Origin: a virus
Direction: 5' to 3' (one strand)
Virus record (IMG/VR): IMGVR_UViG_3300007712_000002
Coordinates: 1 to 64,000 of that record
Length of the DNA stretch: 64,000 nucleotides
Shown here: piece by piece, positions 7,688 through 48,842 of the stretch
Numbering within the stretch: position 1 is the stretch's first letter
How the letters are laid out: each line of letters begins with the position of its first letter
Translations under genes and position numbers: made by a program
Notes under the pieces: model-generated
Databases searched by the model: none
Seen by the model: the letters and a program-made list of their open reading frames with translations, nothing else
Told to the model about the DNA's origin: nothing

Positions 7688-8416
7688 ATGCGTATTCAGG
7701 ATATTGTAGAATACAAGACCAAAGCTGGTGACGATATTAAATTTGAGTTACACCAGGATTCTGAATCAGATCGAAATTTTAATAGTGAATGGATTGTGCA
7801 CAAGCTGGTCCCCCGAGTCAATGGCAAGGAGGCTGGCTACCTTAAAATATCATACATTCCCAAAGAACGATTTGATGCCAGATATCCATCAATGGTTAAT
7901 TATATTCTAAAACAATACATACCACGAGAACTAGTTGGAACACATTGGCGTAATATGCCTGACGAAGTCAAAAAAACACTAGTGACATACACAATTTTGG
8001 GTCGATATGTTCCGAGAACACAAGGGTGGGATCTTGCTTGGTCAGATCAAAGCAAGATCAAAGACATGGATAGTGAAACCTTGGATCATTATTTGGAAAT
8101 GGTTGATGATCCAAAACTGAATAAGAATAATGCTCAAGAATTCCAAAAATTTAAGAAATTTCATGTAGACAAGCCTCTTGTTGATTATATTAGAGTCAAT
8201 GAGGACTTCCAAAGACAGCGAATCGCCCTGGCTATGTATCAAGAAGCAGCCAAATGGCTTGACAAGCAAGGCCTTCTTCTCCATGCTAGTGGACTCCAAC
8301 AGCCCGCAGCAAAAGCAGCATGGGAAAAAATGAAATCCTTGGGATGGACTGCTCCTGCTCCATCAGATCCTAGCCGAACAGTGATAAACCCAAAAAAACT
8401 ACCTAAAGATAACTGA
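7688..8416 (+). CDS. GNAT-like acetyltransferase with tag 2 leader
   Basis: VDYIRVNEDFQRQRIALAMY acetyl-CoA motif A, QQPAAKAAWEK; N-term MRIQDIVE. Confidence 0.65.
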   Translation: MRIQDIVEYKTKAGDDIKFELHQDSESDRNFNSEWIVHKLVPRVNGKEAGYLKISYIPKERFDARYPSMVNYILKQYIPRELVGTHWRNMPDEVKKTLVTYTILGRYVPRTQGWDLAWSDQSKIKDMDSETLDHYLEMVDDPKLNKNNAQEFQKFKKFHVDKPLVDYIRVNEDFQRQRIALAMYQEAAKWLDKQGLLLHASGLQQPAAKAAWEKMKSLGWTAPAPSDPSRTVINPKKLPKDN

Positions 8417-8421
8417 TAACC

Positions 8422-8610
8422 ATGACTTATAATCGATATTTTGAACTTGATCTTGAAGATCTTGAAATCATTGAGTCTGCACTTCGGCAGCAGCTATCAG
8501 CTACAGACAGCCCAGATCGCAAGCGTCTGCTTAACGACATGCTAGGCAAGCTACACCAGCAAAAAACGTGGTATCGTCCCAAAGGCAAAGAACCTTATAT
8601 TTCTGGTTGA
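8422..8610 (+). CDS. Hypothetical protein
   Basis: 62 aa ORF in gene flow. Confidence 0.6.
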   Translation: MTYNRYFELDLEDLEIIESALRQQLSATDSPDRKRLLNDMLGKLHQQKTWYRPKGKEPYISG

Positions 8611-8656
8611 CAAACCAAGGCACATTGCTTATATTGGTAGGGTAAGCAAAGGAGAT
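8605..8656 (+). promoter_or_regulatory. Early sigma70-type promoter/RBS cassette, copy 1
   Basis: TTGACA(8607)-17 bp-TATATT(8630), then GTAAGCAAAGGAGAT; near-identical copies at 9731 and 29261. Confidence 0.85.
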
Positions 8657-8659
8657 ATT

Positions 8660-8971
8660 ATGTCCAATCAAGTTGCCCAAACCATTCTCGACCAGATGGG
8701 TGGACGTCAGTTTTTACTGATGGTAGGTGGCAAGAACATGGTTGCTCTCAGCGGTGATGGTGGACTTGCCCTACAGTTTGGCACCGGCGCCCGAAACCGC
8801 GCTAACCGCCTGCGTGTTGAATATGACCACAGCAGCGACACCTATAACGTTGAGTTTGGTCGTATCCGCAAGCTAGAGTGGAAAACGATCTCGCGTCATG
8901 AAGGTGTTTACGCTGACATGCTGCAAGAGCTGTTCACCGCCGAAACCGGCTTTCACACCACCCTGCGCTAA
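8660..8971 (+). CDS. Hypothetical early protein
   Basis: 103 aa directly after early promoter and RBS. Confidence 0.75.
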   Translation: MSNQVAQTILDQMGGRQFLLMVGGKNMVALSGDGGLALQFGTGARNRANRLRVEYDHSSDTYNVEFGRIRKLEWKTISRHEGVYADMLQELFTAETGFHTTLR

Positions 8972-8977
8972 GAGGAC

Positions 8978-9694: not shown

Positions 9695-9730
9695 GTTATT
9701 GAAGACCAAGAAAAATTAGTTTCACTTTCT

Positions 9731-17896: not shown

Positions 17897-18373
17897 ATGT
17901 CGACGTATCAGCAAGGCAATTATCAGCCTAAAAACACAGAAAAATATGTTGGAAAGCACATTCCCAAATACCGATCGGGTTGGGAACTTCATTTTATGCG
18001 TATGTGCGACAATCATCCCAACATCCTGGCTTGGGCTAGTGAAAGCCACCGTATACCTTATATCAATCCAATAACTGGAAAAAAGAGCAATTATGTCCCA
18101 GACTTCTTTGTGATCTATGTAGACAAGGAAGGCAAAAAACATGCTGAATTGGTTGAAGTAAAACCCAGTAGTCATATGGTAGGCAACGCAAAAGGACAAT
18201 ATGATCAAGCCATGGCTGTTATCAATGAAGCCAAATGGAATTATGCCAGACAGTGGTGTAGGCAACAGGGTATTGGATTTCGCATCATTACAGAAAAAGA
18301 AATCTTCAACAAACCACAAAAGCCACGCAGTCAGCGCAAGCCCAAGATGCCAAAAAAGAGAGCTCGTAAATGA
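17897..18373 (+). CDS. gp4: Head completion nuclease (T4 gp4, TnsA-like)
   Basis: YRSGWE, WASE..IPY, YVPDF, ELVEVKP, N.AKW..A. Confidence 0.85.
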   Translation: MSTYQQGNYQPKNTEKYVGKHIPKYRSGWELHFMRMCDNHPNILAWASESHRIPYINPITGKKSNYVPDFFVIYVDKEGKKHAELVEVKPSSHMVGNAKGQYDQAMAVINEAKWNYARQWCRQQGIGFRIITEKEIFNKPQKPRSQRKPKMPKKRARK

Positions 18374-18600
18374 GATTAGAACAGATAGAACCTATTGCTG
18401 AAGTCAAGGTTATGAGCAGTTGGATTGCTGATCTAGACTACGCTGGCCCCAATGTCGTAATCATGACCCTCAACAGCGGGCGCCGTTATCGTGTTTTGGG
18501 AGTGGGCGAAGGTTTATTTCGTCAATGGGTCCGCGCCCCAAGCAAGGGTAAGTTTTGGCACAGCAACATCAGAGGAAACTATAGGGTGAGCAGAATATGA
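18370..18600 (+). CDS. KTSC-domain protein with tag 2 leader
   Basis: SSWIA..DY...L.SG..Y....V.......APSKGKF...NIRG.Y; N-term MRLEQIEPIAE. Confidence 0.75.
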   Translation: MRLEQIEPIAEVKVMSSWIADLDYAGPNVVIMTLNSGRRYRVLGVGEGLFRQWVRAPSKGKFWHSNIRGNYRVSRI

Positions 18601-19127
18601 CACGCAAATTAGAAGATACCTTCAATTTACCACCAATGGATTTACCAGAAGTCAAGGAAGATGACATGGAAGAAATTGAAGGTTACACAGAAGATGAAAT
18701 GCATCAGATCATGGAGAGGGCAGACAAAATCGATGCTGCCTTGCCGCAAGTCAGCGGGCTAGACAACGTTGATACAGATTATGACGAGTATGCACGTAAG
18801 GCTATTGAAACATTTGATGACCTAGTTGATTTGGGTAAAAATGTCGAGGACCGACATGCCGCTGATATCTTCAACGCAGCCAGTAGCATGATGACCAATG
18901 CGCTCAACGCCAAAACTAACAAAGCGCAAAAGAAGCTTGAAATGGTCAAGCTACAAATACAAAAAGCCAAGTTGGAACACGAGAACGAAAAGCTTGATTA
19001 TCTCAAGAAACGACACCTCAAAACACAAGATGATTCAGCAGAAGAAACAGAAGGACGTATTATTGCAACACGTAATGATATGTTAAGTGATATACTTGCA
19101 GGCATGAAAAGAGACGATGACCAATGA
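18597..19127 (+). CDS. Putative terminase small subunit
   Basis: Helical, acidic, coiled-coil; upstream of TerL; position-based call. Confidence 0.45.
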   Translation: MTRKLEDTFNLPPMDLPEVKEDDMEEIEGYTEDEMHQIMERADKIDAALPQVSGLDNVDTDYDEYARKAIETFDDLVDLGKNVEDRHAADIFNAASSMMTNALNAKTNKAQKKLEMVKLQIQKAKLEHENEKLDYLKKRHLKTQDDSAEETEGRIIATRNDMLSDILAGMKRDDDQ

Positions 19128-19546
19128 GATTATTTGAGCTATTCGACTACAAGGCAGATTTTTGGGATAAGACTGTTGATACATTCGATAACCAGTTTTA
19201 TGAAACTTATATCGACAACGATCATATTGAACTAATGTATCAAAGCAGCGGCAGCAGTTCAGAAGATTGGACGGTGGCCTTTAAAAGAAACAAAAAAACA
19301 ACACAAACACATGAGGGCAATGCCAACAAAATATTCTCAGCAGTAATTAATCATATGTTAGAGTGGGTTGAACAAAATCAGCCACACACTCTTACATTTA
19401 GTGGTGATAAAGGCGAGTCATCTCGAACAAATTTATACTCTAGAATGCTTGATCGTTACGCAGGAAAAATGGGATACCGCGTTGTAACTGAAGATTTGGG
19501 AACAGCGGTATATTTTATATTAGTGAAAAATAACCAAGACACATAA
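19124..19546 (+). CDS. Hypothetical protein with tag 2 leader
   Basis: MRLFELFD; F.GDK..SRTNLYSRML. Confidence 0.6.
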   Translation: MRLFELFDYKADFWDKTVDTFDNQFYETYIDNDHIELMYQSSGSSSEDWTVAFKRNKKTTQTHEGNANKIFSAVINHMLEWVEQNQPHTLTFSGDKGESSRTNLYSRMLDRYAGKMGYRVVTEDLGTAVYFILVKNNQDT

Positions 19547-19570
19547 ATACCATAATAGCAGGAGATTCCT

Positions 19571-20080: not shown

Positions 20081-20081
20081 A

Positions 20082-20540: not shown

Positions 20541-20586
20541 ACGAGCTCTTCTTTATGGGTCCTGTTTGAATCTGTAAGGAGTAACG

Positions 20587-22146
20587 GTGAATACTGTAAA
20601 TACAGATCTTGTCAAACGCCCGTATCAAGAACAGGCGATGTCACAAAAAGAACTGAGAGAGCTCGCACTTTGCTCAGTTAATCCGTTACATTTCATTAGA
20701 AACTATTGTTATATTCAACATCCAACAAAAGGACGGATGTCTTTCCAGTTGTTTGACTATCAGGAAGGGTTGATCAACAGCTACAATGATTATCGTTATT
20801 CAATCAGCTTGCTTAGTCGCCAGACTGGTAAGTCCACTTGCGCGGCTGCATACTTGCTTTGGTATGCTATGTTTAAGCCGGATAGCACCATATTAGTTGC
20901 TGCTCACAAACGTGACGGTGCACAAGAAATCATGACACGTCTACGTTATATGTATGAAAGTTGCCCAGACTATATTAGGGCTGGCGTAACAGCATATAAT
21001 AAAGGAAGCATTGAATTTGACAACGGTAGTAAAATTGTTGCGCAAGCTACCACAGAAAACACCGGACGTGGTCTTTCACTTTCACTAGTTTACTTGGACG
21101 AATTTGCCTTTGTGCCGCCACGTGTGGCCCAGGAATTTTGGACCAGTATCTCACCAACATTGAGTACTGGTGGTAAGTGTATTATTACCTCAACACCCAA
21201 CCAAGATGACGACCAATTTGCTCAAATCTGGAAGCAAGCTAATCGTCGCGTTGATGAGTTTGGTAATGAAACAGAAACAGGCGTAAATGGTTTCCGTCCA
21301 TATATTGTTAAGTGGGATCAACATCCAGATCGCGATCAAGAATGGGCAACGAACGAAAGATCCAAAATTGGCGATGAACGATTTCGCCGTGAGCATGAAT
21401 GTGAATTCATTGCGTTCGATGAAACTCTTATCAATTCTATTTTCCTCTCCGAAATGGACCTCGGCATGGAGCCACTGCGTCGAAGCGGCCAGATCCGATG
21501 GTATGATGCAATTCGTGATGAGCAAACCTATCTAGTGGCACTAGATCCAAGCCTAGGAACGGGCGGCGACCCTTCTGCTATTCAAGTATTTGCTATACCT
21601 GGCATGCGTCAGATTGGCGAATGGCAACACAATAAGACTCCAGTCCAAGGTCAAATCAAAGTATTAAAAAGTATTTTGGAAGAGCTTGAAGATGCTGCAC
21701 CGAATAGTGAAATCTACTACAGTGTAGAAAACAATACATTAGGTGAAGCCGCCCTAGTTTCTATCGAAGAAATGGGTGAAGAAAATCTGCCAGGGATTTT
21801 CCTTAGTGAGCCAAGGCGACGGGGTAACGTAAGAAGATATAGAAAAGGGTTTAACACAACCCACGGCACAAAACTTGCTTCTTGCGCAAAGCTCAAGCGT
21901 TGGGTTGAAGAAGAAACAATGAAGGTTCGCAGCAAGAACCTTACTCGCGAACTCAAAACTTTTGTAGCAAAGGGAAACAGCTATGCAGCAAAGGACGGGG
22001 ATACAGACGATCTTGTCATGTCAACCCTCCTTGCTGTTCGCATGGCCATGCAAGTTGCCAAATATGATGAGGACGCATTCACTGATCTCAAGGATAGTTT
22101 TGATGATGCTGAACTAAGACGACCCATGCCCATCGGAATATTGTGA
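20587..22146 (+). CDS. terL: Terminase large subunit (gp17-like)
   Basis: SRQTGKST Walker A, YLDEFAF, ITSTPN, LDPSLGTGGD, DDLVM. Confidence 0.95.
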   Translation: MNTVNTDLVKRPYQEQAMSQKELRELALCSVNPLHFIRNYCYIQHPTKGRMSFQLFDYQEGLINSYNDYRYSISLLSRQTGKSTCAAAYLLWYAMFKPDSTILVAAHKRDGAQEIMTRLRYMYESCPDYIRAGVTAYNKGSIEFDNGSKIVAQATTENTGRGLSLSLVYLDEFAFVPPRVAQEFWTSISPTLSTGGKCIITSTPNQDDDQFAQIWKQANRRVDEFGNETETGVNGFRPYIVKWDQHPDRDQEWATNERSKIGDERFRREHECEFIAFDETLINSIFLSEMDLGMEPLRRSGQIRWYDAIRDEQTYLVALDPSLGTGGDPSAIQVFAIPGMRQIGEWQHNKTPVQGQIKVLKSILEELEDAAPNSEIYYSVENNTLGEAALVSIEEMGEENLPGIFLSEPRRRGNVRRYRKGFNTTHGTKLASCAKLKRWVEEETMKVRSKNLTRELKTFVAKGNSYAAKDGDTDDLVMSTLLAVRMAMQVAKYDEDAFTDLKDSFDDAELRRPMPIGIL

Positions 22147-22589
22147 TGAGATATCGACATCTATTTGAAAATAACGACATACAGATGAAAATCATGCCGG
22201 GAAATGATCTAGCTCTTTTCATTTCCCGTAACCAAGATGTCAATCAGGATACATTTGAAAGGCTACGCTATCTTCATGTAAATGAAATGGATAAAGAAAT
22301 ACACATTGCTCATTTTGATGGGCAACGAGTTGTATCAAGTCTAGCATTACAAATAAATCCATATGACAATGATGAACTATGGCTCAAGCACGTCATTGTT
22401 GATGAAGATTATCGTAATCGTGGACTCGCAAGTGAGCTATATCAAGCCGCTGCGGATTATGCTAGAGAAAAGAACAAAGCTATCAAACGTAGCAGTTCAA
22501 CAAAAATGGGTCAGGAATATCTATCACACGTTGTTGATCGCGTCAAGAGAAGAAACCCTAATGTTAAAATAATAGATCAGGATAAATAA
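22143..22589 (+). CDS. GNAT acetyltransferase with tag 2 leader
   Basis: VIVDEDYRNRGLASELY; N-term MRYRHLFE. Confidence 0.8.
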   Translation: MMRYRHLFENNDIQMKIMPGNDLALFISRNQDVNQDTFERLRYLHVNEMDKEIHIAHFDGQRVVSSLALQINPYDNDELWLKHVIVDEDYRNRGLASELYQAAADYAREKNKAIKRSSSTKMGQEYLSHVVDRVKRRNPNVKIIDQDK

Positions 22590-22593
22590 CAGT

Positions 22594-25251
22594 ATGGCAA
22601 GTTCAATTGAGCATATTTCAGAACAGATATTCAAAATCATTAAGGGTTTTGGTCACGATATTGTATTGTTCACAGAAAGCGGCAAAAAGGTTGTAGATCC
22701 ATCTGAAGCCCGCCGCTTCTATGCTAAGGATATCCAGATGATGGTTAACTTTGTTGCTGATGAATCATCTAATGAAATTGTTGTTAATTTGTCCAAGGAC
22801 ACAGAACCCAAGGACATCGCAGCAATGCTCAAGGGACTACGTAACCTAGCCAATCGTTATATTATTGAATACACAGTTAAGACATTTGGCAAATCAATTG
22901 GACCCAAGGATTTCGCATACATGGCAAAAAACAAGGTAGAAGAAGCAGCAAAACCGCTGGGTGGAAAATTCAAAGTAGGACAACGTGTTCTTCCAAGCAA
23001 AAGTAGCAGCAATGTAATGACAATCACTGGTTTTGACCGCGTTGAATATATGGGTAAAATGAAAACATTTGCTGACGGGAAAGATGACAAAGGAAGAACA
23101 ATGCGCCGCCCGTTAAACACATTGATTCCTGTAGATGAATCAGTAAATGAAGCACGAGAGATGACGCGAGCAGCAGTCATGAAAAAGATTCGCGATGGAG
23201 AATGGGAAGCAACGCAGGATGTCAAGCCAGGCAAGCACTGTGAGATTCGCAATACTACAAATGGAAAGAAGATGCAGATCATGGTTAAAGAACACACAGG
23301 CACTCAGCAATCATTTGATCTAAAGGGTGGTTCGGCTATTCATCCAAGCTGGCAGGTATATTTCAAAGGAAAAGCAAGTATTGGAAATCCCAAGACTTGG
23401 GCGGCAGAGCTCTATAAGGAACATAAAGGTGAGCCAATCACTCGTGCAACAATTAAAAAGAAGTGGAAGGAAAATGAAGAACTTAGTTTTTCAGATCGTC
23501 TTTTGTTCAAGCCAAATTATGATGCAATCCTATCCTACTATGAAATGATTCATGATGGACAACCAGATCCATCACGGGTCAAGGAGAATGTGAAAATGGA
23601 AGATATTAAACCAGGCCAGAATTGTGAAATCCGCGACGCAAAAAACAATAAGAGGGTTAAGGTTATGACTAAAGAATCAAGTTGGGGTGGTGCACAAGCC
23701 GAAGGCACTGTAAAGAAATTGAAGGATGGCGGCTGGTGGGCAAAAAACCAAGAAGGCACGATGAAAACATTCAAAGACCATGTTCACGCCAAAAGGTTTG
23801 CTAAGACAGGTGATCCTGAAAATGCACCAGACCGTGTTGATGAGACAGATCAATTAAATGAATTGACACCACGACAGAAAGCTATGAAGCAAGGTGCAAT
23901 TACGGATCCTGTATGGAGAAATAATCCTCATGCCGGTTCATATCCAGCTACTGCTGGTCGTATCCGCAGGGGCGATCCGAAAGATCAAGATGAGAGATCA
24001 CAAAAACGTGCTGCTCAGGTATTGAAAACAAAAGGTTCAACAGCACCATATAATCATGGAGTTGACGCCGGCGATAAGCTAAGGCAAAAACGATACAAGG
24101 CTGATCAGAAAACATACATGAATTTTGATAAACGAATAAGAGATGTAAAAGGACCCGGATCAGATGCAGATCGTGCAGAAAACAGAGGGTTTACACGAAG
24201 ATTTAAGAAAAAACGAGATCTTGATGGGGTTGATCCTACAGCCAGACCAGTTGGCAAGTTGCCTGAATCAGTTAGTGAGGGCTTCAGCGGCTGGCACGGA
24301 TCAGCACGTAAAAGCGTTAACGAACTAGGAGACGCTCGTCTCATTGTTCGTCATAAGCGCAATGTAGATGAAGAAAAGCGTGGCGCAAGAACACGGCAGA
24401 TCGAAAGCATCTTCATTGAAAATAGTGAAGGCGAACGTTTCAAGTTTCCAAGCAACAATATCACCGCTGCAAAAGCCATGGCCCGCCATGTTAAGGAAGG
24501 CGGTACGCCGTTTGATGACTTTGGACAGCACATTTACGAAACAATGGAAGAGCTCAATCAGCTCAAGAAGTTCAATCGTAAAAATCGTCGAAATGACTTT
24601 TTTGAAGACCAACAGATAGGCGAAGAAATCACATCACGTATCAGTGGTTTGCGCAATAACCTCAAGAAGATGGCTAACCCAACTGGTTACAAGACACAAC
24701 TGGAAAGCTTCACAACGGAAAAAAGCGAAGTGCCGCAAGAGCGTATTGACGAACTCAAAAGTGAAACCACAATGACATATTTTGATGAAAGCATCGCAGA
24801 CAGTCTTCCTTATGTTGCACGGGTTATTGAAACATACCGCAATCGTCAAGAACTAGAGCAGCAGGTTGTATCACTTGCGCGTTATGTAATGAAAAACAAA
24901 GACGACATTTACTTCAATCGTGAGGTTGATTTTGATGATCCAGAATCACCAACCAACCAGAGATTCAACGACCCAGCAACTGAAGTCGCAGCAATGGTAG
25001 ACTTTTTGGCGCCAGCCGTCAAGGATGATGAACTCAGCAACATGATGATGAAAGTATCAGATGCAGTTCATGATCTTGGTGGAAAATACATCAACATGGC
25101 CATGCAGGCAATCAACGTTATCAAGCGCGCCGGTCAAGTTGACGAGCAACAGCTTGAGTCTGATAGTGAAAATGTTTACGAGACTGAGCTTGATGCTATC
25201 AACGAGACTTTGAACCGTTACAGTGATACTCGCAAACTCTTCGGCGCATGA
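22594..25251 (+). CDS. Large late/virion protein with modular central region
   Basis: 885 aa after late promoter at 22581; many h-x-E sites and an internal repeat. Confidence 0.65.
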   Translation: MASSIEHISEQIFKIIKGFGHDIVLFTESGKKVVDPSEARRFYAKDIQMMVNFVADESSNEIVVNLSKDTEPKDIAAMLKGLRNLANRYIIEYTVKTFGKSIGPKDFAYMAKNKVEEAAKPLGGKFKVGQRVLPSKSSSNVMTITGFDRVEYMGKMKTFADGKDDKGRTMRRPLNTLIPVDESVNEAREMTRAAVMKKIRDGEWEATQDVKPGKHCEIRNTTNGKKMQIMVKEHTGTQQSFDLKGGSAIHPSWQVYFKGKASIGNPKTWAAELYKEHKGEPITRATIKKKWKENEELSFSDRLLFKPNYDAILSYYEMIHDGQPDPSRVKENVKMEDIKPGQNCEIRDAKNNKRVKVMTKESSWGGAQAEGTVKKLKDGGWWAKNQEGTMKTFKDHVHAKRFAKTGDPENAPDRVDETDQLNELTPRQKAMKQGAITDPVWRNNPHAGSYPATAGRIRRGDPKDQDERSQKRAAQVLKTKGSTAPYNHGVDAGDKLRQKRYKADQKTYMNFDKRIRDVKGPGSDADRAENRGFTRRFKKKRDLDGVDPTARPVGKLPESVSEGFSGWHGSARKSVNELGDARLIVRHKRNVDEEKRGARTRQIESIFIENSEGERFKFPSNNITAAKAMARHVKEGGTPFDDFGQHIYETMEELNQLKKFNRKNRRNDFFEDQQIGEEITSRISGLRNNLKKMANPTGYKTQLESFTTEKSEVPQERIDELKSETTMTYFDESIADSLPYVARVIETYRNRQELEQQVVSLARYVMKNKDDIYFNREVDFDDPESPTNQRFNDPATEVAAMVDFLAPAVKDDELSNMMMKVSDAVHDLGGKYINMAMQAINVIKRAGQVDEQQLESDSENVYETELDAINETLNRYSDTRKLFGA

Positions 25252-25907
25252 GACTACATCAAATAACTGAAGGCAGAGACGCACCCCTATATCATGGGGT
25301 GCGTTTCGATCATGCAGCAAAGCAACTAAAAGAAAATCGAATCGAAGGTAGAACAACTCAGAGATTCTGGCCTGGTGGTAGACGATTGAAAGACGATCAT
25401 CCTGAATATAAAGATAGCTTTTGGCTCAAAGGTGTTAGCCTTACACGCGACATCAATTATGCCAAGCATTGGGCAGATATCGTTTATGTTATAGATCAAA
25501 CAAAACTGTCACAACGTTACAAGATTATACCTTTCAACTGGGGCTATGCTAACGCTAAATCAAGAGGACAACATCACAAACGTGAACGTGAAGAATTTGT
25601 CGTGCTTGGTAAGATTTACAAAAGCCTTCATCAATTCATTGAAGATTATAATGACGAAAGAGATGCACTCTGGGACAAATATGATGAACTATTATATCGT
25701 GGTCAGAAAGAAGCCGCTGAAAAAATCAAACAGCAAATTCGCGATATGCCTAATGCAATGGATGCATGGCAAGGACCAGTCAAGACCAATATTGAACCGC
25801 TAGATCAATACCTACTAGAGATCCGTGCTGACAAAATTCATGATAGATTGAATGCTAAAAAGTTTGAGATTATCAAGTCTCATCCTAAGTTCGCAGGATT
25901 TTTCTGA
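25248..25907 (+). CDS. Putative ADP-ribosyltransferase-fold protein with tag 2 leader
   Basis: PLYHG...GVSLTRD...EREE in ART H-S-E order; N-term MRLHQITE. Confidence 0.5.
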   Translation: MRLHQITEGRDAPLYHGVRFDHAAKQLKENRIEGRTTQRFWPGGRRLKDDHPEYKDSFWLKGVSLTRDINYAKHWADIVYVIDQTKLSQRYKIIPFNWGYANAKSRGQHHKREREEFVVLGKIYKSLHQFIEDYNDERDALWDKYDELLYRGQKEAAEKIKQQIRDMPNAMDAWQGPVKTNIEPLDQYLLEIRADKIHDRLNAKKFEIIKSHPKFAGFF

Positions 25908-40918: not shown

Positions 40919-41191
40919 ATGGTGAAAAAGCGCACTCGCAGTATACTTGAGGAAATCAGTCGTATTGATATCCACAAGGATAAAGAGCACTTTATCGAAT
41001 CCAAGGCCCGTAATGTTATCGCAGGCACTGAAAATCTATTGACTCTTATCAATGAGACATATGATGAAGACACGGCACACGATTTGACCAAAAGACTGCT
41101 AAATGCTATTCGCACACAGGATCCAAAAAAGTTTGAGCGAGGCATAAGGAAGGTCAATGAAAGTCGAAGATATCCTAAGCGGAGGTCATAA
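40919..41191 (+). CDS. Hypothetical late protein
   Basis: Late promoter at 40889; KKRTRSILEE...DPKKFERGI. Confidence 0.65.
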   Translation: MVKKRTRSILEEISRIDIHKDKEHFIESKARNVIAGTENLLTLINETYDEDTAHDLTKRLLNAIRTQDPKKFERGIRKVNESRRYPKRRS

Positions 41192-42065
41192 ACGACGCAG
41201 CCGTCGTGGACCACGAAAAGGCAGAATTAAAGGCATTGAACTCGCTCCAATCAAGTTGCGTGAAGGCGGTCATATGGATGGAGTTGGTGCTATTCACATT
41301 GATGAGATCAAACCAACACTTCAGAAACTTGAACGTGACTTGGGTATTGATCTTCAAAATAATGTTCTTGGCAGCGTAGGAAAGAAAGAATTTAGCGGCG
41401 ATATTGACGTCGCAATTCATATCAAACCAGAAGATTTTGAAAAATTCAAATCACAAGTAGAAAAGTCGCCTATTGTTGATGACACTGTAAAAGGTCCTCT
41501 TGTGCTTATGAGCCGTGTTCAAATTCAAAACTACGATCCTGAACTCAGCACAGATAAAAAGCGCACAGGATATGTGCAAGTTGATTACATGATGGATGAA
41601 GATCCAGAATGGCTCAAAACGTTTTATCATGCGCCAAGTGAAAAAGAAAGCCGCTATAAAGGAGCTCATCGTAATATTGCAATTGGTGCCCTAAGCCAGT
41701 TTGTTGATCGTGAAGAAGGATCAGAAAAAACTCCTGATGGTCGTCCTGTTGAAGTAGAACGCTATATGTTCTCAAGCACCAAGGGCCTGGTCCGTGTCCG
41801 TCGTCGACTCAAGCCGCGTAAAGATGGCAAGGGCTATACCAAAGCCTGGGAGAATGAAGTAATTGGCGGGCCTTGGAAAACAGGCGATGAGATTGCTGAA
41901 AAATTGGGACTTGGCACAGCAAAAGACCTTAATAGTTTTGAAACAATTTTTTCAGCAATCAAGAAAAATCATCCCCGCCTAGTTAAGCCTTTCGCACAGG
42001 CTATAGCAGCAGACAAGACAATCCAAGATATGGGTGTGCCAGACGAGATCAAAGAGTATCTATGA
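41157..42065 (+). CDS. Pol-beta-superfamily nucleotidyltransferase with leader
   Basis: LGSVGKKEFSGDIDVA and VQVDYM; N-term MKVEDIL, basic stretch, LREGG. Confidence 0.75.
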   Translation: MKVEDILSGGHKRRSRRGPRKGRIKGIELAPIKLREGGHMDGVGAIHIDEIKPTLQKLERDLGIDLQNNVLGSVGKKEFSGDIDVAIHIKPEDFEKFKSQVEKSPIVDDTVKGPLVLMSRVQIQNYDPELSTDKKRTGYVQVDYMMDEDPEWLKTFYHAPSEKESRYKGAHRNIAIGALSQFVDREEGSEKTPDGRPVEVERYMFSSTKGLVRVRRRLKPRKDGKGYTKAWENEVIGGPWKTGDEIAEKLGLGTAKDLNSFETIFSAIKKNHPRLVKPFAQAIAADKTIQDMGVPDEIKEYL

Positions 42066-43165
42066 GAATACGTCACCTAATAGAAGCTGACCGCAAAAAG
42101 ATGGGCAGGGACCTCAATCACATTGAGGACCTTGTTTTCTTCTATGGAAGTGATGGAGCACAAGAGGCCCTAGAAATACTTCAAGATTTGACAGATGATG
42201 ATCGTCATGATCTCAGCATTAAGTGGGATGGCAAGGTTGCGTTGTTTTATGGGCGTGATGAGGATGGTGTGTTCGGAATGGGGACAAAAGGCAATTGGGC
42301 CAAGAACATGCCCATGACAAGCCCAGAGGCAGCCTATGAGTATATTACAACGGCAGGCAAGGGAGAAGACTGGCGGAAAGAAATGGGACAGGATTTCATC
42401 AAGATATTCCCCATGCTTGAAAACAGTGTGCCACAAAACTTCAGTGGATATGTGACTGGCGATTTGATTTTTTCACCAGTGTTAGCACCCAAGAAAAAAA
42501 CACCAGAAGGTATCCAGTTCAAGAGCAATCAGGTTGTTTACACGGTTGATCCTCAGAGTGAACTTGGCAAGCGTGTAGCACAGGCTGAAGTTGGAATGGC
42601 CCTGCACCTTAAATTTGATTCATGGAATAGTTCAAATAAAGCTGTGATCGGACAAGATACAGTAAAACAGTTGAATTCGCCACAAGTATTGGCACTAGGA
42701 CAAACGTATGCACCCAGCGCACCACGTTTGGACGACAGCGTTCTCAAGAAACTCTCCAGTATGATACAAAAGAACAGCCACGCAATTGATAGTTTAATTG
42801 AACGTCGCGCCGGACTGAGCGATATACCAAATATCATATACACATTTAATAATCAAATGACTAGAGCAGGCAAAGCAAACGATGTTTCAACACAAGAGTT
42901 TTTCGAGTGGCTTTCTGGAAGCAAAGTAAGTGCTAACAAACAAGCCAAACTAGCTGCAATAAACGAAGAAAATCCTCGTGCTTTCCCAGCACTTTTTGAG
43001 TTAGTTCGTGCAGTTGCTGATGCAAAGAACAATATCATTGATCAGTTAGAAGCCGCTACGACAGATATTCGAGCATCAACAGACGGACAGGCCGGGGGCG
43101 AAGGCTATGTAAGCCTTAAACACAAAGTAAAATTGGTTCCACGCCATCGTTGGCGACCAAGTTAA
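42062..43165 (+). CDS. RNA-ligase-like covalent nucleotidyltransferase (DUF6267-like) with tag 2 leader
   Basis: SIKWDG (motif I), GDLIF, GEGYV (IV), VKLV (V); N-term MRIRHLIE. Confidence 0.6.
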   Translation: MRIRHLIEADRKKMGRDLNHIEDLVFFYGSDGAQEALEILQDLTDDDRHDLSIKWDGKVALFYGRDEDGVFGMGTKGNWAKNMPMTSPEAAYEYITTAGKGEDWRKEMGQDFIKIFPMLENSVPQNFSGYVTGDLIFSPVLAPKKKTPEGIQFKSNQVVYTVDPQSELGKRVAQAEVGMALHLKFDSWNSSNKAVIGQDTVKQLNSPQVLALGQTYAPSAPRLDDSVLKKLSSMIQKNSHAIDSLIERRAGLSDIPNIIYTFNNQMTRAGKANDVSTQEFFEWLSGSKVSANKQAKLAAINEENPRAFPALFELVRAVADAKNNIIDQLEAATTDIRASTDGQAGGEGYVSLKHKVKLVPRHRWRPS

Positions 43166-43176
43166 GGAGAAGACAG

Positions 43177-43614: not shown

Positions 43615-43615
43615 A

Positions 43616-44323
43616 ATGGAATTAAAACTTATTACAGAATTTAACGAAAGCACACAGTATAGAAGCAAAAGTGCCTTCCGCCAGACTGATGCTCGCACAG
43701 TCTGTGATCATGCCTTCATGGACATGATTGCTTTGTGGATTCTATACAACGAAAACGAGTTTGCTCCTTGGGCATTGGAATATGCTAGTCGCACAGTTCA
43801 GTTCAATCGCTTTACTAACTATCGCCAAATGGGCACAGACCTTTATCTCAATTTGCATGTGATTACTGAAAAAAGAACAGATCTTCTCGGAATGAATGAC
43901 AAGGATCTAATCATGCTTGACCGCGTCCAACTTGATGTTCCTAATATTGTTCGTTATCTTCGCATGATGTCACAGAACAATATAAACCAAGGAATGGCGA
44001 GAATGACACTGCAAAAACTTGAACATTCCCTGCACATCAATAATTCAAATTATCGCAGTGTGCGTCGTATTGCACAAAATTGGCCCAATCTTGCAACTAA
44101 TCAGAAGCGCATGGTAATCACACGTATGAATTTCTTTTATCAGATGAATGCCCGTCGTTCTGAAGTATTCAAGCAAATTAAATTGCTTGGTAAGAGTCAA
44201 GGCCTAATAGCAAAAGATGCAAATAATCCAGAGATACCCTTTGCTGCTAAAGCAGCGGCCGCCGCCGCTGCTGGCGCTACTGGATATGCAATAGGCCACA
44301 GGATTGGTAAAAGTCTTCTATGA
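43616..44323 (+). CDS. Hypothetical (probable virion) protein
   Basis: N-term MELKLITEFNES; C-terminal Ala/Gly-rich helix. Confidence 0.6.
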   Translation: MELKLITEFNESTQYRSKSAFRQTDARTVCDHAFMDMIALWILYNENEFAPWALEYASRTVQFNRFTNYRQMGTDLYLNLHVITEKRTDLLGMNDKDLIMLDRVQLDVPNIVRYLRMMSQNNINQGMARMTLQKLEHSLHINNSNYRSVRRIAQNWPNLATNQKRMVITRMNFFYQMNARRSEVFKQIKLLGKSQGLIAKDANNPEIPFAAKAAAAAAAGATGYAIGHRIGKSLL

Positions 44324-44733
44324 CCCAACAAATATTAGCTTTCACTCTGGTTGATATCACAGATAGTGGCACAACCAGAGTCCGAGATAGCAATACAAAA
44401 GAATATCATCAGCAACAAAATCTCAACGTTCTTTTGCAGACCATTGGATTGAGAGCGCAGCCGTTCGATCCAGAGGTTCAAATCCTTGAAAATGAATCAC
44501 TAGATAATATGGGATTTGGGGAATTTTTTGGAATCGACCCACAAAGAGTATGGTCATTGAAATTCCAAGTTGAACATGAAATGGCATGGAGCGATGGCGT
44601 TGATCAATTAGCACTCCTCAAGCAAGATGCAAATGGTGTAGCAATTACTAGTGATCTAGACAACACAGTTGAATTTCCTATAAATGCGTTTGATACCCGG
44701 GATAATGTAAATCTTTATTTTGCAATCAATTAA
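44320..44733 (+). CDS. Hypothetical protein
   Basis: TLVDIT..G...QQ.N...LLQTIGLRAQP. Confidence 0.65.
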   Translation: MTQQILAFTLVDITDSGTTRVRDSNTKEYHQQQNLNVLLQTIGLRAQPFDPEVQILENESLDNMGFGEFFGIDPQRVWSLKFQVEHEMAWSDGVDQLALLKQDANGVAITSDLDNTVEFPINAFDTRDNVNLYFAIN

Positions 44734-44786
44734 CAGGCTACCTAATTTTTTAACAAGCCCAATAAATATGATTGTAAGGGAATTAG

Positions 44787-45083
44787 ATGACTACACCTTT
44801 TAATAGCGAACTTGAGAAAAAGAATCTCGAAGTACACGTTGACATGGAACGTCAACGGTTTGCAATCCTATCTGAAAAAGTCGAGACGTTGGATGAACGC
44901 ATGGATGCGGTTTTTAGTGAAATCGGTGATTTTCGCAAAGAACACGCAAAAAACATGCAACAGATACGAGAAGAAAATGCCCTTAACTCACAAGGAACAC
45001 ACAAGCTGTTCGTAGGAGCAGCAGCAACAGTAATTGGCGGACTCTTGAGCACTATTGTTGTTCTGTTAATTGCTTTTATATAA
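44787..45083 (+). CDS. Coiled-coil protein with C-terminal TM (possible lysis role)
   Basis: LEVHVD...RF..L...LD, TM at C-term, late promoter 44761. Confidence 0.5.
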   Translation: MTTPFNSELEKKNLEVHVDMERQRFAILSEKVETLDERMDAVFSEIGDFRKEHAKNMQQIREENALNSQGTHKLFVGAAATVIGGLLSTIVVLLIAFI

Positions 45084-45104
45084 AACACTCTTGCATTACA
45101 ACTT

Positions 45105-45132
45105 GCGTCGCCTCTAGGGGCGGCGCCTTTTT
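45105..45132 (+). terminator. Rho-independent terminator
   Basis: GCGTCGCCTC-TA-GGGGCGGCGC-CTTTTT. Confidence 0.75.
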
Positions 45133-45168
45133 ATTAACGGATAGCATAAATACCCAAAAGGAAACGTT

Positions 45169-45453
45169 ATGAAACTGAATGATATTACGGGAGAGAGTGA
45201 TTCACTAGTCGAGACCAAAATGGTCTGGGCAAAGTCAGGTGGAAAAGTCGCCCGCAAATATCGTTGCACATTTGGAAAACGTAAAGGTCGTGTTGTAAGC
45301 GATCCAAGCCAATGTAGCAAGCCAGTTGACATGAAAAAGCGTTTTACCCTGCGCCGCACCAAAGCGCAAAAAGGTAGTAGAATGACTCGCAAGGCACAAC
45401 GCACCAAACGCACAAATCCAGCGAGCAAGATGGTAAAGGCACTAAACAAATGA
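45169..45453 (+). CDS. Highly basic small protein with tag 2 leader
   Basis: MKLNDITGESDSLVE, then K/R-rich body (KYRCTFGKRKGRVV). Confidence 0.7.
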   Translation: MKLNDITGESDSLVETKMVWAKSGGKVARKYRCTFGKRKGRVVSDPSQCSKPVDMKKRFTLRRTKAQKGSRMTRKAQRTKRTNPASKMVKALNK

Positions 45454-45671
45454 CAGATATTGACAGACTACGCAAACTGAGTGGTATTTCAGAAGATAAT
45501 GACAATTCGACGCTAGAAAAAATCCAAAAAGGTATTAGTAACTACGTTCGTCAGGAAAATGATCATCATTGGCCTTTTGGTTTTGAGCGCGAGTTGGCTG
45601 AATTTATTCAAGCTGAGTTGGAAAAAGATGAGACAGTTGATAATATGCCACAATGGGGAGAACGCACATGA
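45450..45671 (+). CDS. Small acidic protein with tag 1 leader
   Basis: MTDIDRLRKLSGISE. Confidence 0.65.
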   Translation: MTDIDRLRKLSGISEDNDNSTLEKIQKGISNYVRQENDHHWPFGFERELAEFIQAELEKDETVDNMPQWGERT

Positions 45672-46747
45672 AACTTCTTGAAGCAATCGAAAGCACTTCA
45701 GTAAAAGATGCTATTCAAAAGATGGTAACTGATATGTTCAATGATGAGTTGGACGATAATCGTCTTGATCAAATTATTGATGGTCTTAGCCTTAGCGATC
45801 TACTTGCCCTTGACCAGGCCTATCAAGATGGCGACAAAGAAACAATTAGCAAAATACTTGGACCTTTTCCAAAATTGGAATACAGCATGGGCGCAGGCCG
45901 CCAATCCAGCAGCGCAGCAAGCAACCGTCCAGCACCAAGAACCGCAGGCGGCCAGCAAGCAAGCAAAAAACCAGGGACGCAAAAAACAGTAAACACCAAC
46001 CGTAACTATAGCAGCGGTGTCCAAAACGCTGTTACCACAAAGAATGTTGATGGTGAAAATGGAGACGATCCTGAAGCAATGGTTAAAGATGATGAACCAG
46101 TTGAAGAAACCAACAGTGGTTCATTCAATGACGAGCGATTCAATTCACATGAAGTTATCCGCGCCCTTGAAGGAATTGCAAGTGATGAAGAAGGCGATGA
46201 TCCTGTGTTTTCATCAGGACTACAACAGCTAGCCAATCGCATTAATCAAAGCTATCCTGATAGTGTTACTATCGCAGAAATCGTTAACATGCTACAGGAA
46301 CCACAGCTAAGTTCTATTGATAAAGATGACGTCTTTTATGCCTTGCAAGCTAGTGGAATTATGGATATACAGATGGAAGCAAGCGTCGGCGCGCCTGACT
46401 ATAATCCAGCAGCAGGTCGCCATAACCAATTCCAAAATAGTGACGACGTGATTGTCACAAGTGGTGAATGGGAAGGTAAGACTGGCATGGTTCAATCAGT
46501 GCGCCCTAATAGTGTCACCGTTCGTCTCTATAACCACGATTTCTTAATGGACTTTGAGCCAGATGAGATCGAACACAATGACTATGCAGATAGCGATCAA
46601 GAAGAAGACAACATGCGTTTGAGTATGGGCGACGACGAATATGATCGTATACATGGCGACTTGGGTTACAAAGATGAGTCAGTAACCGAAAATGTTGATG
46701 TCGTCGACATGGTTAAATGGCTCAAGCGTAGAGCAGGGATTGAATAA
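45668..46747 (+). CDS. Modular acidic protein: tag 2 N-term, KOW-like module, tag 1-like C-term
   Basis: MKLLEAIES; DVIVTSGEWEGKTGMV; ends MVKWLKRRAGIE. Confidence 0.65.
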   Translation: MKLLEAIESTSVKDAIQKMVTDMFNDELDDNRLDQIIDGLSLSDLLALDQAYQDGDKETISKILGPFPKLEYSMGAGRQSSSAASNRPAPRTAGGQQASKKPGTQKTVNTNRNYSSGVQNAVTTKNVDGENGDDPEAMVKDDEPVEETNSGSFNDERFNSHEVIRALEGIASDEEGDDPVFSSGLQQLANRINQSYPDSVTIAEIVNMLQEPQLSSIDKDDVFYALQASGIMDIQMEASVGAPDYNPAAGRHNQFQNSDDVIVTSGEWEGKTGMVQSVRPNSVTVRLYNHDFLMDFEPDEIEHNDYADSDQEEDNMRLSMGDDEYDRIHGDLGYKDESVTENVDVVDMVKWLKRRAGIE

Positions 46748-46971
46748 TGCGCAGTATTGTAACAAAAGGTGGTATTCCTACTTTTGTTTCCAAACATGAG
46801 TATACCTTTATTGAAGAAAACTTTGAACATGGAGACATGATTTATAAGAATGAACTTAACGAGCACGAAGCAGAAATTGCTAGAGTGCTAACTACTAGAG
46901 GAATACTACAGCGTTTTAGTGATGCTGATAAAGGCATTTACTACACGCAAAATATCAATCGAGGAATTTAA
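46747..46971 (+). CDS. Hypothetical protein
   Basis: 74 aa, ELNEHEAEIARVLTTRGIL. Confidence 0.6.
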   Translation: MRSIVTKGGIPTFVSKHEYTFIEENFEHGDMIYKNELNEHEAEIARVLTTRGILQRFSDADKGIYYTQNINRGI

Positions 46972-47151
46972 ATGTTACCAGTAGAACAGACCTGCCCTAA
47001 ATGTCACGGACGATTCATGGGGAGCGATGTCATTGGATATCCATGTCCCAGCTGCACAGGAATAAGTGAGCAAAGCCTCATTGAGGCACTCACATCAATG
47101 AACCAAATGTATTATCAGGAGGAAGAAAATGACAGACCAAGAACAGACTAA
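46972..47151 (+). CDS. 59-aa Zn-ribbon peptide (not in ORF track)
   Basis: MLPVEQTCPKCHG...CPSCTG; RBS GAGGA 6 nt upstream; fills the gap. Confidence 0.55.
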   Translation: MLPVEQTCPKCHGRFMGSDVIGYPCPSCTGISEQSLIEALTSMNQMYYQEEENDRPRTD

Positions 47152-47731
47152 CGCAATGGCTAACATCCTTGGCAAACTGGGCCAAGTTGAAGAAGGCACA
47201 TACGAAAAGACTGGGGGAGGTGCATCTAACGAAGACACAGCAGCAATGGCTGATGTTTTGCGTAAATTACAAGAAACCACTGGTGCGTTTTCACAAGACA
47301 TTGTGAATGAAAGCAAGAAGCAACCCGACTTGGGTGTTGCCGTTCAGGCGCAGCGCACAAAGGCTGGCGTCAGTGTCAGCCATTATGATATTCAGACCGA
47401 GAAGAAAACAGTCCATGAAGGTCTTACAAAAACATTCTATCATGTTGTTGACAACAAGACTGGAGAAATAGTTTATGAGGATCTTGGACTATTTGAAACT
47501 GCCATGGGTATTGTAAAACATCTTCTCTATACCAACAACAGCCAAAAACTATCTCGACTCGTCGACCTTGATCAAGAATATGTCGGGGCAATGATGGAGA
47601 CATATGGTTATAAAACAAGACTCAAGCGTATTGACGAAAGTTCAGTGAAGTATGATGTGACATCAGCCAAATATTCTAATGCTAAATCACGTCTCGGTGC
47701 TGTCAAGATGAAAATCCTCAAGGCTCTATAA
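47129..47731 (+). CDS. Hypothetical protein
   Basis: RBS GGAGGA; repeated AMA.[IV]L.KL motif; IVNES site. Confidence 0.65.
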   Translation: MTDQEQTNAMANILGKLGQVEEGTYEKTGGGASNEDTAAMADVLRKLQETTGAFSQDIVNESKKQPDLGVAVQAQRTKAGVSVSHYDIQTEKKTVHEGLTKTFYHVVDNKTGEIVYEDLGLFETAMGIVKHLLYTNNSQKLSRLVDLDQEYVGAMMETYGYKTRLKRIDESSVKYDVTSAKYSNAKSRLGAVKMKILKAL

Positions 47732-47778
47732 CTAGGGCTTTCGCATAAATACATTACAGACAGTTACGGAGATCTGAT

Positions 47779-48504
47779 ATGATTCTAAAAGAATTTACAA
47801 CACGAGGCGGAACGAAGCTAGAAAAGCTTACTCGCGCCCTCAATGAAAATTACAATTATGATATTAACTTCAAGGGTATGACAGTCGCCCGCGCCGAGCG
47901 CCTAGCTGAGCGAGCACGCCTGAAAGTTGAAGAAAACAGTGATGTCAACAAACGCATTAAATTTGCAATGATTGCAGAGAGCCTCGATCTCTGGATGCAA
48001 GCAAACGTACAAAGTGAACTTACATCATTCAATTTAGCTGAAGGGCTTGATGACGAAAGCATGGAAGAAGCAAAAGTCATCCTTGCAGCAAAAGAATTAA
48101 GCGATAAGATCCAGGGCATGATTGAAGATGCCGCAAAGATGCAGGTTCAAGACCTGCTTCCAATCGTTGATGCCATGAAAGCTGAATTGGGTGGAAGTGA
48201 GGCAGATGCCTTTGCTACATCCGCAGACGCAGCATTGGGCGGCCTAGTCGACACACTCAAGTCAGCCAAGGAAGAATATGACGGAGCAATTCAAGCTGCT
48301 CAAGGACAAGAACCAGCAACCGACATGGACAACTTTGACATGGACGGCGACATGGGCGACATGGGCGATGAAATGGACACAGACATGGACAACTTTGACA
48401 TGGACGGCGGCGATGATATGGAAGTTGACGATGAATTTGGTGGTGATGATGCAAATGTTGCTGATGACGAACCAACCGGACGTGAGATGAAAGACGAGAT
48501 CTAA
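47779..48504 (+). CDS. Prohead-core/scaffold-like acidic protein
   Basis: Late promoter 47744; LNE, LAE sites; helical; D/M-rich tail ending GREMK. Confidence 0.5.
   Translation: MILKEFTTRGGTKLEKLTRALNENYNYDINFKGMTVARAERLAERARLKVEENSDVNKRIKFAMIAESLDLWMQANVQSELTSFNLAEGLDDESMEEAKVILAAKELSDKIQGMIEDAAKMQVQDLLPIVDAMKAELGGSEADAFATSADAALGGLVDTLKSAKEEYDGAIQAAQGQEPATDMDNFDMDGDMGDMGDEMDTDMDNFDMDGGDDMEVDDEFGGDDANVADDEPTGREMKDEI
48322..48409 (+). repeat. 28-nt exact direct repeat (60-nt period) encoding DMDNFDMDG
   Basis: GACATGGACAACTTTGACATGGACGGCG at 48322 and 48382. Confidence 0.9.
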
Positions 48505-48842
48505 TGCGAGCACACGAGCTGTTTGATAGTGATTATAACGAGGATCTCCGTTCAGAAGTAATCACTCTGCTCACAGCCGTAAGTGCTGAAGGAATAGATC
48601 AAGTTAAAACTCAAAACTTGTTAATTGATCTCGAAAACCAGGGTTATGCAGTTGATGAGCAAAGTTTGCTTGAACTTCTCAATACAATGGAAGTGGTTGC
48701 GACTGCCAACAGTGATACAATTGAAATTGCCACAAGCGATGCGGACGTAATGGTCGGCCAGGATGCAGATGAAATTGAGCAAGACCGTGTTGATAATTTG
48801 GCTACTAATCAAGCAACAAAAGACCTGGGAGACGAAATATGA
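48504..48842 (+). CDS. Acidic protein with tag 2 leader
   Basis: MRAHELFD. Confidence 0.65.
   Translation: MRAHELFDSDYNEDLRSEVITLLTAVSAEGIDQVKTQNLLIDLENQGYAVDEQSLLELLNTMEVVATANSDTIEIATSDADVMVGQDADEIEQDRVDNLATNQATKDLGDEI

Follow-up and report, generated by a model that had tools for sequence, protein, structure and literature searches.

An eight-residue N-terminal tag on unrelated proteins of a jumbo phage, a candidate capsid-targeting propeptide

Proteins with unrelated folds share a short N-terminal peptide, M-[RK]-h-x-[EQDH]-h-x-[ED] (h, hydrophobic), in the first 64,000 nucleotides of the virus record IMGVR_UViG_3300007712_000002, a fragment of a Rak2/121Q-like jumbo myophage from a soil lineage. 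This stretch, which we call the window, makes up 64 kb of a 92.5-kb record with a CheckV completeness of about 25%. Here, we show that the tag is non-random, held at the level of the peptide and portable across unrelated folds. We propose that these eight residues act, as in phage T4, as a capsid-targeting propeptide that can head different proteins and that closes with a putative site for the prohead protease. We regard this as the probable explanation and hold it with moderate confidence, because all steps beyond the existence of the tag and its likeness to T4 are ones that we infer. Judging by the proteins that carry it, the tag most likely serves core-like acidic proteins and several enzymes in this lineage.

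An N-terminal peptide shared by unrelated proteins

A preliminary description of the window had listed twelve genes with this kind of start (Table 1; genes are named here by their first position), and all twelve N-terminal strings translate as it gave them, with one shift: the codon at 22143 is GTG, and the motif begins at the ATG at 22146. The start of 45668 is the second ATG of its open reading frame (ORF); it lies about 9 nt behind GGAG, overlaps the upstream stop as ATGA and is matched in position by the start of the orthologue in a relative. We scanned our own gene calls (132 confident genes) with the literal motif ^M[RK]h.[EDQH]h.?[ED], which fits eight of the twelve: 7688, 18370, 19124, 22146, 25248, 42062, 45668 and 48504. 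These eight matches compare with 0.19 expected from the rate at internal positions and 0.27 expected given Arg or Lys at position 2; 1 of 622 internal Met positions matches, and column shuffles give a mean of 0.28 matches, with none of 5000 reaching eight. An enrichment over background N-termini is thus present, at chance figures that are optimistic because the regular expression was written after these genes had been seen. The replication genes lack the motif, as had been stated: helicases, primase, RecA, SSB and ribonucleotide reductase are all negative. A near-member starting MRARELFFE lies beyond the window, at position 66006 of the contig.

Codon choice differs between copies of the tag (synonymous variation) and the DNA upstream of them is unrelated, so the conserved feature is the peptide. 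Nucleotide-level recombination or a cassette boundary was considered and is ruled out by the non-conserved upstream DNA and codons.

Conservation in orthologues and in homologue families is independent support for the motif. We compared the window with its closest long relative, G001 (144.7 kb; DUF6267 protein 82% identical), and with the more distant G002 (large terminase, TerL, 60% identical). Nine of the twelve genes have tagged orthologues in G001, and orthologue comparison indicates that the tag evolves faster than the adjoining residues yet keeps its pattern. The tag of 48504 drifts from MRAHELFD through MRLRDLIE and MRFSEIVVE to MRFRDLTE, that of 45668 from MKLLEAIE to MKLFESID (in the relative locus L083), and that of 7688 from MRIQDIVE to MRVSEILE in G001, where the motif is kept and the downstream residues are conserved. 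Orthologues of 18370 start MRLNELND (locus L002) and MKIDELQLDE (G001), those of 47779 start MILNEF and MILHDLQE, and that of 45169 in G001 starts MKMYEILNE. In L083, the orthologue of 43616 starts MDLKLVNDLTE and that of 41157 has an unchanged N-terminus. In G002 the tag heads a nucleotidyltransferase as well as the orthologues of 48504 and 47779.

Wider families tell the same story at greater depth. The pattern M-[RK]-Y-[RK]-x-L-[FI]-E opens all nine homologues of the 22146 acetyltransferase, which are 62-100% identical to it; an identical protein (P0125) is encoded on another contig of about 332 kb. DUF6267 homologues (n=120; Arg2 in 98, Glu5 in 68, Phe6 in 67) nearly all start M-R-[FLAY]-x-[EQH]-[FLI], followed by a linker of variable length, often by L-T-E-A, and then by the domain. 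Some of them (P0053, P0056) share the start of 41157. The tag is missing from P0015, P0035 and the cyanophage proteins S-PM2d138 and PTIM40_182; a few homologues, like these cyanophage proteins, begin at the domain. Between tag and domain, some DUF6267 homologues carry a Cys-rich module (W-V-C-G-K-C...C-x-C) and others an insert containing ...C-S-N-P-K-G-F-S-Q-K-A-H (P0059, P0067, P0103, P0110-P0113, P0117 and P0092, P0108, P0118); the linker therefore tolerates whole mini-domains. An exhaustive search for the 25248 family returned 497 cluster representatives. Among the 150 of these listed, 88 have an extension of 9-20 residues before the L-Y-H-G domain start, and 47 of the 88 carry the tag core; P0136 starts M-E-G-R-D-A-P, exactly at the domain, with the tag absent. 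A limited pattern scan with a narrow alignment found no relatives of this family in prokaryote genomes. Across the homologue logos, position 3 is F, L, A or Y and position 6 is F, L or I.

The tag is also found on cytidylyltransferases. PTIM40_183 of the T4-like cyanophage P-TIM40 (locus L131, 2674-3747) starts MRFLDFIKEA ahead of a low-complexity linker, which extends the tag to marine T4-like phages, and a cytidylyltransferase-like enzyme of the jumbo relative G002 (85949-86557) starts MRISDIITES. Its carriers in the window include proteins of the GNAT, KTSC and DUF6267 Pfam families, a protein with an ADP-ribosyltransferase fold and acidic proteins of no family, making it a portable element.

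Predicted structures set the tag apart from the domains that it precedes. AlphaFold2 models built on deep alignments have a pLDDT (predicted local distance difference test score) of 93.3 for 25248 and 93.1 for 42062, falling to 64 and 45, respectively, over residues 1-10. In both models the tag is predicted as a short helix, with a loop between it and the domain, and is the part of lowest confidence; the first domain strand of 25248 starts at residue 14. In the eight genes the tag takes up 7-9 residues from Met1; the domain starts given by Pfam and AlphaFold2 lie at residue 12-18. A conserved yet unstructured end is how a docking-and-cleavage tag should look.

Likeness to T4 packaging tags and the competing explanations

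The internal proteins of T4 carry a capsid-targeting sequence (CTS), reportedly described by Mullaney and Black in 1996. It is the sole feature common to the internal proteins of T-even phages (PMC3012670). The first ten residues of IPIII are enough for head targeting, with residues 4 and 7 acting in targeting and residues 8 and 10 in processing; Asp at position 10 blocks processing and leaves targeting intact, and the tag may permit T4-like phages to load varied proteins (PMC9026906). In the T4 record, the first residues of both IPII and IPIII are MKTYQEFIAE, with Ala next; IPI opens with MKTFKEF and has I-T-E-A at residues 17-20, and Alt starts MELITELFD; gp22 (MLKEQLIAE), gp21 (...LLIE) and gp24 (MAKINELLRE) have similar starts. 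All eight tags of the window are hydrophobic at positions 3 and 6, three apart like Tyr4 and Phe7 of T4. The sequence [LI]-x-Glu occupies positions 6-8 of 7688, 22146, 25248, 42062 and 43616 and positions 9-11 of 18370, and 45668 has A-I-E. The 88 extended representatives of the 25248 family mostly place Leu or Ile two residues before the last pre-domain Glu and Gly, Ser or Ala after it, and the L-T-E-A of DUF6267 proteins parallels the I-T-E-A of IPI and the I-A-E-A of IPII and IPIII.

A matrix built without T4 input recovers the packaged proteins of T4. Its input was the N-termini of metagenomic homologues of the DUF6267 and ADP-ribosyltransferase-like families (174 unique sequences), and it was scored with a flexible offset. 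Among 272 T4 ORFs it ranks IPII and IPIII first and second, gp61.1 third, IPI fourth, and alt.-1 and Alt tied at 9-10; four named T4 proteins in the top 10 of 272 correspond to a hypergeometric probability of about 1e-6. The same matrix places gp182c first among the 566 ORFs of phage phAPEC6. The third-ranked T4 protein, gp61.1 (NC_000866 18966-19130, locus L132), is a hypothetical protein of 54 aa that adjoins the primase gene and whose start, MKTFKEFIKE, resembles the tag of IPI. We know of no report that it is packaged.

Links to the head come from relatives of the fragment. phAPEC6 gp182c, the orthologue of 48504, is among 62 virion proteins detected by mass spectrometry, through one peptide (PMC7247149 Table 1). 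G001 and G002 each have a tagged small gene beside the portal gene, in the position of T4 67/68 (MRSKEFLRE and MRFNELAIDE). Peptidase_S77, the family of the T4 prohead protease gp21, exceeds the Pfam cut-off in G001 (73473-74108, minus strand), G002, A4, phAPEC6 and the T4 control. It is present in all five IMG/VR records with a tagged ADP-ribosyltransferase-like copy (239-561 kb, three at least 97% complete) and exceeds the cut-off in none of the four records whose copy is untagged or differently headed.

We propose the following sequence of events for the tagged proteins. Hydrophobic positions 3 and 6, corresponding roughly to Tyr4 and Phe7 of T4, would dock a newly made protein onto the scaffolding core during prohead assembly. 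A gp21-type (Peptidase S77) prohead protease would then cut at the [LI]-x-Glu that ends the tag, and the trimmed protein would remain in the head; the acidic core-like proteins would instead be degraded and leave. Retained cargo, including the GNAT protein, the ADP-ribosyltransferase-fold protein, the ligase-like DUF6267 protein and the KTSC protein, would enter the host together with the DNA.

Several observations weigh against this proposal. Four of the twelve listed members (41157, 43616, 45169 and 47779) are looser look-alikes that fall outside the motif. Two strict members, 19124 and 48504, end in Asp, the residue that blocks processing, not targeting, in T4; 18370 has no [LI]-x-E at positions 6-8, and the tag is eight residues long here compared with ten in T4. 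The T4 internal proteins are missed by a matrix built from the window tags alone. An Arg or Lys as second residue is explained in part by the ATGA overlap, which forces a second codon starting with A. No head module is present in the 92.5-kb fragment, nor is Peptidase_S77, and the protease is seen only in relatives because the fragment has no such module. Of the four S77-negative records, two are 16-20% complete and two 70-79%, and the N-terminus of one (L154) is ambiguous. The sole proteomic support is the one gp182c peptide, from a distant orthologue of 48504 (25% identity). Of the enzyme labels, those of 22146 (GNAT) and 25248 (ADP-ribosyltransferase fold) are supported, and those of 7688, 41157 and 42062 are weaker. 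Docking, cutting, head retention and injection in this phage are all steps that we infer. Finally, the TerL neighbourhoods of 80 relatives (1021 ORFs) hold 3 motif matches against 1.1 expected, which is no enrichment, and the motif is rare in phAPEC6 (3 of 566 ORFs). The TerL region thus does not carry the tag as a rule, and use of the tag appears limited to certain lineages and cargoes. The preliminary description had posited a cleavable head-targeting signal as in T4. The likeness to T4 tags, the matrix, the gp21-type protease of relatives and gp182c in virions support that claim, and the two Asp-ended tags, the four off-motif members and the partly weak enzyme labels count against it.

The alternative that survives best, although we think it improbable, is that the tag is a short linear motif for another partner, such as the replisome or clamp, a chaperone, a host factor or another compartment, and that its likeness to T4 reflects convergence of amphipathic helices. 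A tag that is conserved and predicted to be disordered would suit any docking motif; the genes from 41157 to 43165 directly follow primase and helicase genes, cyanophage DUF6267 genes likewise follow a helicase gene, and T4 gp61.1 has a similar start beside the primase gene and no known head role. Such a motif would not, however, be expected to end in the cutting rule of a protease, to sit on a virion protein detected by mass spectrometry and on a small head-module protein, to co-occur with S77 or to yield a matrix that retrieves T4 proteins known to be packaged.

A further alternative, which we rate as slightly less likely again, grants a head role only to the acidic core-like and small proteins (47779, 48504, 45668 and 45169) and treats the enzymes as cytoplasmic, with an incidentally similar start. 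PHROG annotations as virion structural proteins and mass-spectrometry links are indeed limited to 47779 and 48504, and cyanophage DUF6267 members function without a tag. Against this, the best-conserved tag, the variable linker and the [LI]-x-E followed by a small residue are all found in the enzyme families, the tagged enzyme copy tracks S77, and T4 already provides an example of a tagged enzyme in Alt.

A third explanation, combining translation-start constraints (ATGA overlaps, A-rich early codons) with chance and a motif drawn after the fact, is very unlikely and already largely refuted. Overlaps with the upstream stop are common among the strict matches, AGA is codon 2 in six of the eight, and the regular expression was fitted to data in which four of twelve listed members are off-motif; yet positions 3-8 are conserved as amino-acid classes despite synonymous variation, no shuffle reaches eight, and the tag is kept in hundreds of homologues on other contigs and missing from some. 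The least credible explanation is that the common start forms an integral part of the structure or stems from common descent of the proteins, since the short helix seen in both models is their least confident part and is separated by a loop, tagless family members exist, and the unrelated Pfam families and folds rule out paralogy.

Beyond this phage, the capsid-targeting proposal has a broader and more tentative form, which we consider possible but short of an even chance. Many giant phages of the T4 superfamily may share one address tag of 8-10 residues that loads a changing set of enzymes for injection (DarT/Tpt1-like ADP-ribosyltransferases, ligase-like and nucleotidyl-transferases, and acetyltransferases), and two tag families, the second being MDINRLRxLAG, may sort classes of cargo. 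The second family, M-D-I-N-R-L-R-x-L-A-G, is real in our own gene calls (window positions 7443, 16958, 20082, 45450 and 48839-51366); h-x-Glu usually occurs no more than a few residues further on, so that both tag families end in a protease-like site.

The tagged genes, their setting and late-promoter-like boxes

Table 1. Tagged genes of the window and the late-promoter-like boxes ahead of them.
Feature	Coordinates	Strand	Start or box	Description
7688	7688..8416	+	MRIQDIVE	242 aa; I-V-E at 6-8; GNAT-like C-terminus weakly supported
18370	18370..18600	+	MRLEQIE	76 aa; KTSC domain; tag followed by P-I-A-E; ATGA overlap
19124	19124..19546	+	MRLFELFD	140 aa; Asp-ended tag; ATGA overlap
22146	22146..22589	+	MRYRHLFE	147 aa; GNAT acetyltransferase; L-F-E at 6-8; directly after the large terminase gene
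25248	25248..25907	+	MRLHQITE	219 aa; ADP-ribosyltransferase fold; tag followed by GRDAPLYHG, the domain start; ATGA overlap
41157	41157..42065	+	MKVEDIL	302 aa; looser tag followed by a Lys/Arg-rich stretch
42062	42062..43165	+	MRIRHLIE	367 aa; DUF6267 protein (K-x-D-G, ligase-like); tag followed by Ala; ATGA overlap
43616	43616..44323	+	MELKLITE	235 aa; basic; I-T-E at 6-8; outside the regular expression, resembles the T4 Alt start
45169	45169..45453	+	MKLNDITGE	94 aa; very basic (isoelectric point, pI, 11.3); behind a late-promoter-like box
45668	45668..46747	+	MKLLEAIE	359 aa; acidic (pI 4.2); ATGA overlap
47779	47779..48504	+	MILKEF	241 aa; acidic, helical; behind a late-promoter-like box
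48504	48504..48842	+	MRAHELFD	112 aa; acidic; Asp-ended tag; orthologue of phAPEC6 gp182c
Box	19542..19549	+	CATAAATA	heads the run 19571 to 25907, with tagged 22146 and 25248
Box	45145..45152	+	CATAAATA	16 nt before 45169; ahead also of 45668
Box	47744..47751	+	CATAAATA	27 nt before 47779; ahead also of 48504

The enzyme labels given in the preliminary description fared unevenly. The GNAT model is passed at 22146 (Pfam Acetyltransf_1, 42.7 bits, cut-off 20.7), and at 7688 the same model stays under its cut-off with 17.1 bits. Pfam also identifies KTSC in 18370 (31.8 bits, cut-off 25; match from about residue 12-14) and DUF6267 in 42062 (94.7 bits, match from residue 18), and DUF6934 reaches a sub-cut-off 23.5 bits in 19124; neither Pfam nor PHROGs matches 25248, 41157, 43616 or 45668. 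For 25248, fold comparison with VIA-align over 48,161 chains places Tpt1 on top (Z 9.6, rmsd [root-mean-square deviation] 3.2, 109 aligned), followed by DarT (Z 8.5 and 8.0), and in 76 family sequences R67, E113 and E115 never vary; R39 and S64 occur in at least 90%. The model thus supports an ADP-ribosyltransferase fold with conserved residues of catalytic type. In 42062, K54-W-D-G57 is invariant, and the top Foldseek rows are DNA, RNA and tRNA ligases at weak scores (E at least 0.04, TM-score about 0.2), leaving the ligase-like label weak; Foldseek gave no significant match for either the 25248 or the 42062 model, and the DUF6267 profile found no solved relative among PDB sequences. The nucleotidyltransferase label of 41157 stays tentative: Pfam, PHROGs and PDB sequence searches found no family or solved relative behind it.

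The two acidic genes at the end of the series have structural annotations. 47779 matches phrog_14154 ('virion structural protein') at E 5e-17 and is related to A4_53, annotated 'structural protein', with no tblastn match in cultured phages; 48504 belongs to phrog_15050 ('virion structural protein') and is related to A4_54 (MKFSDLTE) and to phAPEC6 gp182c (MRFRDLTE). Both proteins end in ...D-E-I, as their last codons also hold the ribosome-binding site and the start of the following gene; 47779 has a long tail rich in Asp, Met and Gly.

Among the products encoded in the window are a large terminase, the sheath of a contractile tail, several helicases including one of DnaB type, and a primase. 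A distant search matched DNA of cultured phages only in the RecA and SSB genes (Rak2/121Q/CBB-like jumbo myophages, 66-67% identity), and megablast of 20 kb against cultured phages gave no match. The cluster from 41157 to 48842 lies between the replicative helicase and the exonuclease/ribonucleotide reductase block, and the order of primase/helicase, variable cluster and exonuclease/ribonucleotide reductase is that of the Asteriusvirus coliphages A4 and phAPEC6.

It had been stated that many tagged genes are inserted with overlapping stops inside structural operons. Seven of the twelve starts (18370, 19124, 22146, 25248, 42062, 45668 and 48504) do share 4 or 1 nt with the stop of the gene before them; the structural-operon part applies only to the genes from 18370 to 25248. 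Within that run, 19124 is an accessory insert between a small-terminase-like gene and 19571, with no orthologue in 80 TerL-neighbourhood loci that include relatives with 88-89% identical TerL. Like 19124, 22146 and 25248 are absent from the equivalent positions of these 80 neighbourhoods, including the two with 88-89% identical TerL, and the tagged genes are therefore in part accessory inserts; 22146 does have a counterpart in G001 at the same post-TerL position. The conserved gene at 19571-20080, which separates the small-terminase-like gene from TerL, is a member of PHROG 14802 ('virion structural protein'); its orthologues (loci L004-L077) mostly start M-K-S-F-K-x-Y-L-x-E-S, near the T4 tag, and the window copy starts MTKNLGQYLAENE. 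The large terminase, whole in the window (20587-22146), consists in G001 of two ORFs about 1 kb apart (47895-50916, loci L105-L106), which suggests an insertion of an intron, an intein or a homing endonuclease.

Boxes with the T4 late-promoter core [CT]ATAAATA occur 11 times on the plus strand and twice on the minus strand of the 92.5-kb contig. Ten of the 11 plus-strand boxes fall between genes; for seven, a start follows at a distance of 16-27 nt, among them those ahead of 19571, 45169 and 47779. The positions of these boxes fit late expression of several tagged genes, as an indication short of a formal early-versus-late comparison. Boxes resembling TATAAATA also lie 5-7 nt before the ATG of tagged genes at contig position 66006 (65993-66008) and in loci L147 and L151, the latter two being ADP-ribosyltransferase-like genes of two giant phages with the boxes just before base 10001; a further such case, at contig 87949-87964, precedes an untagged gene. 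A spacing of 5-7 nt leaves no room for a normal 5' leader, and the late mRNAs of these genes may therefore be leaderless or nearly so.

Relation to known head-targeting systems

If our proposal is correct, the tag would be a sequence-only marker of head-carried proteins in giant phages. The injected arsenal of an uncultured phage would then be readable from sequence alone, and the first minutes of infection by uncultured jumbo phages (host take-over, counter-defence and repair or modification of nucleic acids) would be predictable from metagenomes. It would add candidate injected families that have not been reported as such, namely the DUF6267 ligase-like proteins, Tpt1/DarT-like ADP-ribosyltransferase-fold proteins and tagged cytidylyltransferase-like proteins, and could give T4-style delivery vectors a shorter, naturally occurring tag with which to load proteins. 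The gain would lie in breadth and in a list of cargo, not in a new mechanism, because the T4 principle has been known since the 1990s.

The tag resembles the T4 CTS in its place at the extreme N-terminus, its basic position 2, its two hydrophobic residues three apart around Glu or Gln, its usual [LI]-x-Glu end before a small residue, its unrelated carriers and the gp21-type protease of its relatives. It differs in having Arg at position 2 in most cases and Asp as the last residue of some copies, and a single hydrophobic residue seems to be both the targeting residue and the residue two before the cut. The candidate cargo here, known from sequence alone, consists mostly of enzymes and acidic proteins, whereas T4 cargo is small and basic.

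The h-x-E-h-h-x-E look within the first ten residues is shared with the propeptides of the T4 core and vertex proteins gp22, gp21 and gp24. In T4, the first ten residues are removed from gp24. Among the proteins of the window, the acidic helical 47779, 48504 and 45668 resemble components of the T4 core and scaffold in character, and sequence homology to T4 gp22, gp67 or gp68 was not found.

T4 Alt offers a parallel for a tagged enzyme. Its start, I-T-E and then L-F-D, recalls both 43616, which starts MELKLITE, and the tags of 19124 and 48504, which end in ...ELFD, and Alt is a head-carried ADP-ribosyltransferase, as 25248 is a protein with an ADP-ribosyltransferase fold. Unlike Alt, which has 682 residues and is also cut at its C-terminus (PMC9026906), 25248 has 219 residues and is nearest in fold to Tpt1 and DarT.

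The ejection proteins of phiKZ and SPN3US differ in their propeptides, which are long and have no shared short tag, and they are cut after S/A/G-x-Glu, with a small residue in place of Leu or Ile. Like the lineage described here as we propose it, these are giant phages that pack many proteins into the head, and a diverged gp21 homologue cuts them after Glu (PMC9026906).

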